From Promethearchaeia archaeon (GTDB taxonomy: Archaea; Asgardarchaeota; Lokiarchaeia; Sigyniarchaeales; SOKP01), in NCBI GenBank assembly GCA_046497275.1, contig JAWOFX010000064.1, forward strand, positions 12,447 to 44,446: a stretch of 32,000 nucleotides of DNA. Direction: 5' to 3'. Position 1 is the stretch's first letter; the number at the start of each line of letters is the position of its first letter. A model generated the notes under the pieces. It ran no database searches. It saw nothing but the letters and a program-made list of their open reading frames with translations, and was not told where the DNA came from. Below, in pieces: positions 27,961-32,000 of this stretch. The position numbers and the translations under genes were made by a program.

Positions 27961-28650
27961 ATGGTTCGTTTTACAGCAGATCATAAAGTATACATAAAAA
28001 TTCTCTATTGGGGAATGGGTGGATCGGGAAAAACAACGATCGTTGATACTTTATATCGATTAACTAAAGAAAATAAGAAAGATATAGAGCCAACTGGAAA
28101 TTTAACAAAAATTTCTATGGCTAGTGGATCAACTTTATATTTTGATCGAGGTATTTTTCAATCAACAAAGCAAAGAAAAGTCTTTTACCATGTTTATACA
28201 GTTGCAGGTCAAAATAGATTTTCTCCATTAAGAAAGAAAATATTTAAAGGAACTGATGGTGTGATTTTCACAGTTGATTCCCAAACACATTTTTTTGAGG
28301 ATAATATTGAATCTTTAAAAGAATTGAAAAATGTCACCAGAGGAAAATTGATTAACGAGATCCCCTTAATTGTTATGTTAAATAAACAAGATCTTACGGA
28401 AGTTATTGGTGAAGAAGACTTTAAACAAATCTTAAAAGATGAAAAACTTTGGTATGAGCCAGATAATGAATTATATATTTGGAATCCAATAATTTATAAG
28501 ACTTGTGCTTTATGGGACAAGAAAAAGGATATTTATAAAAGTTTTAGTGAATGTGCGAGAAGAACGGTTCTCTATCAGATTTATGGAAATGGGAGCGCTC
28601 CTGTTGGAGATGATTACTCTAAATCCTCTGAGGATTTAGATAAATTTTAA
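27961..28650 (+). CDS. MglA/Arf-like small GTPase
   Basis: KILYWGMGGSGKTT, STLYFD, TVAGQ, NKQD and TCAL motifs. Confidence 0.92.
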   Translation: MVRFTADHKVYIKILYWGMGGSGKTTIVDTLYRLTKENKKDIEPTGNLTKISMASGSTLYFDRGIFQSTKQRKVFYHVYTVAGQNRFSPLRKKIFKGTDGVIFTVDSQTHFFEDNIESLKELKNVTRGKLINEIPLIVMLNKQDLTEVIGEEDFKQILKDEKLWYEPDNELYIWNPIIYKTCALWDKKKDIYKSFSECARRTVLYQIYGNGSAPVGDDYSKSSEDLDKF

Positions 28651-29121: not shown

Positions 29122-29703
29122 TTAAGTTTTAAGTATTAAATTCGGGAATATTGCACCTAATATTTTTTGAAATGAATCATATATTCCTTCTCCAGAAATA
29201 GCAATAGTGTTTTGAAATGATATCTGGTTGAAATCGTCAATTCCCAACTCAGAAATGAAACTTTCTTGTTTTAATTTGTCCTCTTTTTTTAAATCATTTT
29301 TATTAAAAGCTATCAATACTGGGATTTTATACAGTTCATTTCCAAAGAAAAATTTTAATTCTTCCCATGAACGTAAATTTCTTTTAAAATTCCTTTCATT
29401 AGAATCTACTACAAATATAATTCCATCCACACCTCTGAGTGTCGCTGGTCTAGTACTGATATAAAAATCTTGACCTGTGGCAGAATATACTAATAATTTT
29501 AAATTCCATTCTTTACCGCTAAAAATTAAAGTTCCAAAATCAAAAAATAATGTTCTTCCCACAGAATTTTCTATTGATTTTAAATTATGTTTTTTATTAT
29601 AAAAATCAAATAAATATTTAATAGAGGTCGTTTTCCCTGACATAGCGGGGCCATAAAATACTATTTTTACTTGGATTATTTTTTTCTCATAATCATAAAT
29701 CAT
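29122..29703 (-). CDS. MglA-like small GTPase
   Basis: KIVFYGPAMSGKTT, GRTLFFDF, SATGQ, NKND and TIA motifs. Confidence 0.92.
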   Translation of the reverse strand: MIYDYEKKIIQVKIVFYGPAMSGKTTSIKYLFDFYNKKHNLKSIENSVGRTLFFDFGTLIFSGKEWNLKLLVYSATGQDFYISTRPATLRGVDGIIFVVDSNERNFKRNLRSWEELKFFFGNELYKIPVLIAFNKNDLKKEDKLKQESFISELGIDDFNQISFQNTIAISGEGIYDSFQKILGAIFPNLILKT

Positions 29704-29706
29704 TTT

Positions 29707-30603
29707 TTAACCCCAAAAAGACTGAATTTTTTCTCCTAAAAGTGTTAATTTATTATTTTCAATTAAATTGGTAAAGTCTTCACCCCATTCATTTTGTATA
29801 AATGACAATATCCTTTCAATGGGTGCCTCTTCATAGTCAATTGTTTCTAATAAGGTTCTACTTCCAATCATAGATTGCAACTGCATTTGGTTTATTAATT
29901 TTAACTTCAACAAGATGAAAAAAGCCCTTTTAGCACCAGAATAAAAGCTTTGAATTTCTTTATTAAAGATATTTCTTTTTATTTCCTTTTTTTCTAATTC
30001 AAAATTAAGTAAAGCTTCTTCTAATTCAATATCTATCTTATTTTTTCTCAATTCTTCAGATAAGACCCTTTTCATTTTATTAATTGATTTTTCCGTATCC
30101 TTTGAAACTTTTTGAAAAATGCTTTCTTCGATATAAAGATTTAAGATTTTTTTATTCATTATGTTGGTAATAACTTCTGTATTTCCATTCTTTAAAAATA
30201 ACTCTATATGATCTTTTGTTTTATTACTAATTCTCTCTTGTATTATTTTTAAATCTCTTTTTGAATCTGGGAGTCGGATTCCTATTATTATGGATTCAAG
30301 AGTGTCAAATTCCTCAATTAATATAGAGGAAACATTAGCAAGACATCTTATTTGAATCCTTGCACAATTATAATCATTATATTCATTTAAAATAAGGTCT
30401 TCATACTCTTGTTTAGAAATAAAATCGGTATAATATACAAATTCTTTTCTAAATTTTATCAAATCCATTAATTCGTTTATTAATTCATTTATATCCTCTG
30501 AAACCTTGCCAAAAACAATTATTGGTATCCTATTCAAAAGCGAGTAGAGAATTAAAGCCCTATTCTCTTTTCCTAATTTATCAAAAAATTTGAAAATATC
30601 CAT
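29707..30603 (-). CDS. Hypothetical protein, candidate cDENN/dDENN-like
   Basis: The CDS is clear. The DENN resemblance (LILYSLLNRIPIIVFG; ESIIIGI) is by eye only. Confidence 0.6.
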   Translation of the reverse strand: MDIFKFFDKLGKENRALILYSLLNRIPIIVFGKVSEDINELINELMDLIKFRKEFVYYTDFISKQEYEDLILNEYNDYNCARIQIRCLANVSSILIEEFDTLESIIIGIRLPDSKRDLKIIQERISNKTKDHIELFLKNGNTEVITNIMNKKILNLYIEESIFQKVSKDTEKSINKMKRVLSEELRKNKIDIELEEALLNFELEKKEIKRNIFNKEIQSFYSGAKRAFFILLKLKLINQMQLQSMIGSRTLLETIDYEEAPIERILSFIQNEWGEDFTNLIENNKLTLLGEKIQSFWG

Positions 30604-30616
30604 CTTAAATCCTATA

Positions 30617-31630
30617 CTATTTGATTACTAGTTCTCCAATTAGATTCTTTATATCAAATACTCTTTCTTTTTGATTTCTTTTTGCATTTTGGATCAATTT
30701 ATCTAATTTATTCAAAAATTGAGGTAAATATAATCTAATTAACCCTAATTTTTGGCGTGATTTACCCACTTCGGAACTAAAAACAGCATTGTTTATCTCA
30801 TAAATGAAATGAAATGAATTCGTACAGTCTAATAAAATATTTTCAGCAGTCATTTTCTTTAAGGCCCACGCACATCTATTAGCAGTTTGAAAAAGTGAAT
30901 AACTCATAGCAGATATATTGTCTATTTCATTTTCATCAAAATAGGTTTTTCTCAATATTTTATTTATTATAAAACCCCCCTCTAATGATAATAATGCATA
31001 TTTTAAATCTAGAATAGTTAATGAAAAATTATTCAAGATTTTATTTAATTCCCAAGATAATTGCTCTGAGATATCCAATGAAAATGATGATAGTTTAACA
31101 CTTTCTTCATTATTTTTCTTTATACTAAAACTTTCCAAAATATCTCTAATTTTTGTGCTATTAAACTCAATAAGAGGAGGTTTAAAAGATTCACCTGAAG
31201 TTATTAAAGTTGTTTTGATATTTTTTAAGCATTCATTGGTCTGTAAGAAAATCCCTCCTAAATTTACATTTGGTTGAGCTGTAATGGCAATAAAAAACTC
31301 GTGATTATCTTCGATTATTCCTTGTTTCTCCAAAATTTTATTCAAAGAACTATGAATTGGATTATTTAGAGGTGCAATTAATATTTTTGCCTTTTTACCT
31401 TCAATCAAAATATATTTAAGATCATCAGGATGTAAGTTGATTCCAACATTAAATATTGCACTAGCTGCTGAACTGACATTAAATATCTCCTCCTTAGAAA
31501 ACCAAACTCCAGCAGACTGAATTGGATTCCCATCTCTTTGAGTTAAAACTGCATTTTCGACCCCTTTTAATTGTTTTATTTGATCCAAGTGTATTTTAAT
31601 TTTTTCTTTGAGATTCATATTTATCAGCAT
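30617..31630 (-). CDS. Tandem Roadblock/LC7 (MglB-like) domain protein
   Basis: N-domain GVENAVLTQRDGNPI...SSAASAIF...ILIEGKKAKILI; C-domain YALLSLEGGFII...ISAMSYSLF...ILLDCTNSFHFI. Confidence 0.88.
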   Translation of the reverse strand: MLINMNLKEKIKIHLDQIKQLKGVENAVLTQRDGNPIQSAGVWFSKEEIFNVSSAASAIFNVGINLHPDDLKYILIEGKKAKILIAPLNNPIHSSLNKILEKQGIIEDNHEFFIAITAQPNVNLGGIFLQTNECLKNIKTTLITSGESFKPPLIEFNSTKIRDILESFSIKKNNEESVKLSSFSLDISEQLSWELNKILNNFSLTILDLKYALLSLEGGFIINKILRKTYFDENEIDNISAMSYSLFQTANRCAWALKKMTAENILLDCTNSFHFIYEINNAVFSSEVGKSRQKLGLIRLYLPQFLNKLDKLIQNAKRNQKERVFDIKNLIGELVIK

Positions 31631-31718
31631 TTTTAAAAAGATGTATAATTATTTTGCAAGAAATCTTTTTAAACTACAAGAATATTTATAGCCCTCTAAT
31701 ATGGATAAAATAAAAAAA

Positions 31719-31726: not shown

Positions 31727-31756
31727 CAATCAATATATTATTATTATTGCAATAAA

Positions 31757-32000
<244 letters not shown>

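Follow-up and report, generated by a model that had tools for sequence, protein, structure and literature searches.

A conserved Asgard operon encoding a tandem-Roadblock protein, a predicted longin-less DENN-fold protein and an MglA-type small GTPase

Regulators of small GTPases built from DENN and longin or Roadblock domains organise eukaryotic membrane traffic and nutrient signalling. For Asgard archaea, Liu et al. (bioRxiv 10.1101/2020.10.19.343400; Nature 2021) had already predicted an operon of Roadblock, DENN and GTPase genes; they proposed that it acts like the folliculin (FLCN) complex, called its GTPase Rab-like and favoured a role as guanine nucleotide exchange factor (GEF) for the module. 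According to Tran et al., Asgard GTPases are generally not found in operons with Roadblock or longin genes, with a small MglA-like group being mentioned. In the papers searched on Asgard DENN domains or on longins of the GTPase-activating protein (GAP) type, no bench or biochemical test of the operon was found. Here, we analysed a stretch of 32,000 nucleotides (hereafter the window) of a Promethearchaeia archaeon (Lokiarchaeia, Sigyniarchaeales; GCA_046497275.1, contig JAWOFX010000064.1, positions 12,447 to 44,446), in which three genes on the minus strand encode a tandem-Roadblock protein, a DENN-like protein and a small GTPase. The window is another copy of the operon of Liu et al., and thus of a system known as a prediction since 2020/21: the three components are adjacent, on one strand and conserved across Asgard lineages. 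We consider it likely that the three genes make up a small-GTPase switch complete in itself, whose operon is conserved in many Asgard archaea, with the MglA-type GTPase as the switch, the Roadblock protein as its platform and the DENN-fold protein as an exchange factor or co-regulator.

The genes are transcribed in the order Roadblock (30617..31630, 337 amino acids by the longest open reading frame), DENN-fold protein (29707..30603, 298 amino acids) and GTPase (29122..29703, 193 amino acids), and the gaps of 13 nt (30604-30616) and 3 nt (29704-29706) between them are those given in an earlier note, made by reading the window alone. Of 52 loci sampled in ten Asgard families, 49 have this order intact on one strand, so the arrangement is not a product of chance; the intergenic gaps range from -35 to +22 nt in most loci, with overlaps of 4 nt in several families. 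As for the three exceptions, one locus ends before the GTPase gene (L007), one begins at the DENN gene (L018), and one has neither neighbour (L029). The latter (G135:C139:17956-21846) carries a DENN-family gene of full length, but within 1.5 kb of it neither a Roadblock nor a GTPase gene can be recognised, and the tandem-Roadblock gene of the same genome sits on a different contig (C76); either a rearrangement or a misassembly may be the cause.

The distribution of the components was followed in 301 sampled genomes of the phylum. The DENN family is present in 168 of them, including 67 of the 90 high-quality genomes, and is a single-copy gene in the genome of the window. Matches to its profile at E < 1e-70 are confined to ten families (e.g., 56/68 genomes in f1, 74/76 in f9 and 15/19 in f14), and at this threshold none was found in the other families (e.g., 0/28 in f7, 0/11 in f16 and 0/11 in f29). 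The tandem-Roadblock family occurs likewise in 168 of 301 genomes and in the same ten families, and the twelve f1 genomes without the DENN gene are the same twelve that have no tandem-Roadblock gene.

Metatranscriptome contigs from four salt-lake libraries of two studies match parts of all three operon genes with full identity. The junction between the GTPase and DENN genes is bridged by three of these contigs (X2, 29292-29839; X3, 29286-29762; X7, 29631-30094) and the one between the DENN and Roadblock genes by a fourth segment (X3, 30569-30824), which is compatible with co-transcription of the three genes.

The third gene had been called a small GTPase in the earlier note, and PFAM agrees, with matches to Arf (8.9e-11) and Ras (1.2e-8) in the 193-residue protein. 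For profile searches and motif counts, 24 syntenic orthologues were used. The resulting profile matches four MglA structures (6hjh and 3t12 among them) at E ~1e-42 and 149 bits, and the next family is Rab11 (Rab11B), at 1.6e-13 and 54 bits. The window protein has the P-loop GPAMSGKT, a GRT motif in switch I (R50/T51), a G3 motif, SATGQ, that lacks the Asp, and NKND. Across the orthologues, GRT, [STC]xxGQ and NKxD are each present in 24/24 and DxxGQ in 0/24, and the switch I of the profile aligns to DRTLFFDF of MglA. By sequence, then, the GTPase is of the MglA type. An identity as Rag, Rab or Arf was rejected on the 149 bits for MglA versus 54 for Rab11. A Rag/Gtr-type GTPase with a C-terminal Roadblock domain was also considered; the protein consists of a G domain only, and it scores 22.1 bits against Gtr1_RagA versus 42 against Arf.

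Two Roadblock domains had been noted in the first gene, and this is borne out. The PFAM model Robl_LC7 matches amino acids 12-90 with 28.3 bits (cut-off 23) and is found in 24/24 orthologues, MAPKK1_Int/LAMTOR3 matching weakly in 10/24. The orthologue profile matches solved Roadblock proteins with both of its halves (positions 7-119 and 172-297): the N-terminal half hits 7f8m_A (1.1e-6), and the C-terminal half 9jue_D (1.8e-9), cvnB5 (3leq, 1.3e-5) and MglB (~1e-3). Moreover, the two halves align to each other in hhalign over 120 columns (probability 83.7 %, E 8e-6). The two Roadblock/LC7 domains span amino acids ~12-135 and ~185-320, the N-terminal one being the more conserved. The orthologues of the tandem-Roadblock protein begin at the second Met of the window's reading frame (31618), and in two runs of one study adapter-ended RNA-library contigs terminate at 31613-31617; such contigs are no proof of where a transcript ends. 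Translation may really begin at 31618, in which case the leader would be very short or absent.

PFAM and NCBIfam scans of the 298 residues of the middle protein gave no match, and phmmer and profile searches against PDB sequences gave only chance-level matches (Cas-phi, ferritin). It has 331 homologues (79 representatives at 50 % clustering) of nearly constant length (297-298 amino acids), all of them unnamed and all from Asgard metagenome bins. Among 44 homologues, three match Folliculin_C (PF16692), the best with 20.2 bits against a cut-off of 27 (amino acids 5-62 over positions 4-62 of the profile, an alignment co-linear with the structural one described below); one homologue matches the DENN model (PF02141) at E 0.093. 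Neither model matches any protein in the window's own genome, and across the 301 Asgard genomes Folliculin_C gave four sub-threshold matches only, all in other proteins outside the operon. The motifs that had drawn attention to the protein are present in its translation, namely FFDKLGKENRALILYSLLNRIPIIVFG at amino acids 6-32, SIIIGI at 104-109 and HIELFLKNG at 132-140.

Structure prediction with AlphaFold2 was unusable from the single sequence (predicted local distance difference test score, pLDDT, of 34), and with the 44-sequence alignment it gave a confident model (pLDDT 90.7, predicted template modelling score 0.87). The model has an alpha/beta cDENN-like core (amino acids 1-150), a helical dDENN-like part (157-283) and an unmodelled tail (285-298), and the motifs quoted above fall on its strands E28-32, E105-110 and E132-138. 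In a structural comparison, FLCN ranked above C9orf72 (Z 10.8), SMCR8 (10.7), DENND10 (10.6) and DENND1A (10.1), all of which span both sub-domains; the predicted order, a cDENN core followed by helical dDENN, can be superposed on solved DENN proteins. The earlier note had proposed cDENN and dDENN without the N-terminal longin, with a helical C-terminus; the model agrees on both counts (its C-terminal half is helical, H157-297) and, at the level of the fold, the middle protein stands as a longin-less DENN protein of the folliculin type.

A Foldseek search of the same model against the PDB returned nothing at E 0.001, with DENND1A/B interspersed with P-loop ATPases. It is conceivable that the protein is not a DENN protein, and instead what is left of a PilT/VirB11/GspE-type (RecA-like) ATPase domain, degenerate and free of nucleotide, with a mere resemblance to the cDENN core. 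We regard this as very unlikely. Most such matches cover residues 1-150 only, whereas those of the DENN family extend over residues ~1-275 and include the helical part, and the FLCN alignment, which covers 187 of 199 target residues, scores 2.5 Z units above the ATPase domains. In addition, the sole PFAM hints in the family are to Folliculin_C and DENN, and the Walker A motif is present in 0/68 members, on which ground an active ATPase was rejected.

Taken together, the three components suggest how the likely switch would work. As in bacterial MglA, the catalytic Arg (R50) and Gln (Q78) are both supplied by the GTPase. The simplest reading of two Roadblock domains in one chain is a covalent version of the MglB homodimer; this platform would bind one GTPase and stimulate hydrolysis by positioning the catalytic residues of the GTPase itself. 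The DENN-fold protein would then probably act with the Roadblock platform, either as an exchange factor or as a co-regulator of the same GTPase. A complex prediction for the three chains with the DENN protein as partner scored 0.00, a value that counts neither for nor against binding. Several points weigh against this proposal. The division of labour is one that we infer, because Liu et al. describe the GTPase as Rab-like and prefer a GEF role for the module as a whole. The window's own 298-residue protein matches neither DENN nor Folliculin_C in PFAM and the matches of its homologues are below the cut-off, so the DENN assignment depends on the predicted structure, in which PilT/VirB11/GspE-type ATPase domains lie just 2.5-3 Z units lower over the first 150 residues. 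Finally, RNA-library contigs cannot prove a single transcript, DNA carry-over being possible.

A further possibility concerns how the Roadblock and DENN proteins would fit together. The first residue of the model falls on FLCN residue 347, where the C-terminal domain of FLCN begins, so that there is no longin (uDENN) in the chain, and the tandem Roadblock could take its place in trans. The two proteins would then form a composite corresponding to an unfused, ancestor-like state of FLCN-FNIP or C9orf72-SMCR8. Their genes lie side by side in 49/52 loci, with overlaps of 1-10 nt in several families, and the two protein families share one distribution, as described above. FLCN-like architectures have been reported in Heimdallarchaea (Liu et al.), and elsewhere in the phylum there are sub-threshold candidates for a fusion of a longin with a Folliculin_C-like domain. 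These are f23 proteins of 307 amino acids (L053, 1171-2091 (+); L056, 1096-2016 (-)), with a weak Fuz_longin_1 match at amino acids 4-96 followed by a weak Folliculin_C match at 111-168, and are candidates for a fused, FLCN-like longin-DENN architecture; they adjoin a PAC2 gene and are not within a Roadblock/MglA operon. Against such a composite, no contact evidence was obtained between the Roadblock and DENN proteins, and the helix topology of Roadblock differs from that of longin (Tran et al.). Also, the MglA-type GTPase next door gives the Roadblock pair a simpler role, that of an MglB-like dimer. Among the longer proteins of the DENN family, no fused Roadblock-DENN form was found, which is weak evidence; the PFAM scan of the longer representatives (P0149, P0168, P0170 and P0193) gave no Roadblock and no longin. 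The split arrangement is compatible with all the data and overlaps with the switch proposed above rather than excluding it; we hold it tentatively, as a possibility that is on balance doubtful.

At the C-terminus of the DENN-fold protein is a conserved tail, [SG][LFM]WG, whose Trp (W297) is invariant (the last 15 codons, window 29707-29751 (-)). AlphaFold2 leaves it disordered (pLDDT < 50), and it may serve to dock the protein onto the Roadblock platform or the GTPase. That the tail looks like a docking peptide also bears on whether the protein regulates the nucleotide state at all, since the protein could instead act downstream of the GTP-bound MglA-type GTPase, as its effector or as an adaptor for localisation; a bacterial parallel is given in the abstract of a 2026 paper (PMC13408092), where RomRX, the supposed GEF of MglA, is argued to be an effector. 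On the other hand, it is well established that known DENN-fold proteins work as GEFs or within GAP complexes (see also Liu et al.), and strict co-inheritance, one-to-one with the GTPase, is what one would sooner expect of a dedicated regulator, which makes an effector improbable.

Both the window and its contig run out within a 16S rRNA gene that is divergent from the operon; the 5' end of this gene occupies the last 62 bases (31939-32000 (+)) and lies ~0.31 kb away from the Roadblock gene, on its upstream side. The two are likewise neighbours, at 0.32-0.64 kb, in all f1 and f2 loci with enough flank (16S at, e.g., 3756-3894 in L003, 5562-6897 in L033, 5354-6844 in L035 and 5273-6234 in L051), an adjacency that was not seen in the sampled families f3, f5, f8, f9, f11, f14 and f17. 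Because the 16S gene adjoins, contigs of metagenome-assembled genomes frequently break just upstream of the operon, and the adjacency probably also accounts for some complete-looking f1 genomes that seem to lack it. Between the two transcription units, an intergenic alignment of four genomes shows conserved AT-rich, TATA-like blocks next to the Roadblock gene (31631..31700 (-)), with an invariant block at 31666-31677, and this region is a putative promoter of the operon. An inverted repeat, ATCGCATCTTT ... AAAGATGCGA, common to four genomes, follows at 31754-31826 (+), and the depth of the RNA libraries climbs to hundreds or thousands from ~31770-31810 onwards; the repeat region is probably part of the pre-rRNA leader.

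Joining these elements leads to a more far-reaching idea, which we consider highly improbable as a whole: the longin-less DENN protein, together with the fused Roadblock pair, would be one composite regulator of an MglA-type GTPase, an unfused, ancestor-like state of the eukaryotic longin-DENN complexes docked via the ...LWG tail, and in Lokiarchaeia-type genomes the divergent pairing with the 16S rRNA promoter would couple the switch to the making of ribosomes, much like the growth control exerted through FLCN, Rag and TORC1.

As for the surroundings, the window is AT-rich (~25 % GC) and carries archaeal markers, among them a TFIIB-like gene. A second small GTPase of 229 amino acids (27961-28650 (+)) is convergent with the operon and matches Arf at 1.9e-17, with weak G-alpha and Gtr1 matches; in another genus of the same family (L052), a 229-residue relative lies at a similar distance.

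The operon bears on the origin of eukaryotic GTPase regulators. The combination of DENN, Roadblock and an MglA-type GTPase suggests a regulatory logic older than eukaryotes and derived from a prokaryotic MglA/MglB-like switch, a view already argued in print. What we add to the published prediction is small, i.e., the placement divergent from 16S in the order to which this archaeon belongs, the ...LWG tail and the RNA-library contigs on all three genes. Being small and single-copy, the three proteins readily lend themselves to reconstitution, and the remaining value of the system lies in experiment.

The catalytic Arg of FLCN is located in its longin domain. The DENN protein of the window has no such domain, and the locus further differs from FLCN-FNIP (Lst7-Lst4) and C9orf72-SMCR8 in having no PFAM-level match and a GTPase of the MglA rather than the Rag/Arf type. 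With bacterial MglA-MglB (Myxococcus xanthus, Thermus thermophilus), it shares the GTPase (E 1e-42 to MglA, the Arg-Thr of switch I and a G3 motif without Asp) and a Roadblock-fold partner encoded beside it, whereas a fused double Roadblock stands in place of the single-domain MglB homodimer, a DENN-fold protein is present as third component, and no RomR/RomX-type proteins are encoded within the operon. The actinobacterial conservons (cvnA-D) encode a sensor kinase, the Roadblock protein CvnB, a DUF742 protein and a small GTPase. The order of Roadblock, middle protein and GTPase is alike, and the profile of the Roadblock protein matches cvnB5; the Asgard operon has no sensor kinase gene and its middle protein has a predicted DENN fold instead of DUF742. 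The closest counterpart is the operon of Liu et al., with the same three components, operon organisation, phylum-wide conservation and proposal of an FLCN-like regulator; the GTPase is here of the MglA type and not Rab-like, and the Roadblock protein contains two such domains in tandem, differences that leave the kind of system unchanged.
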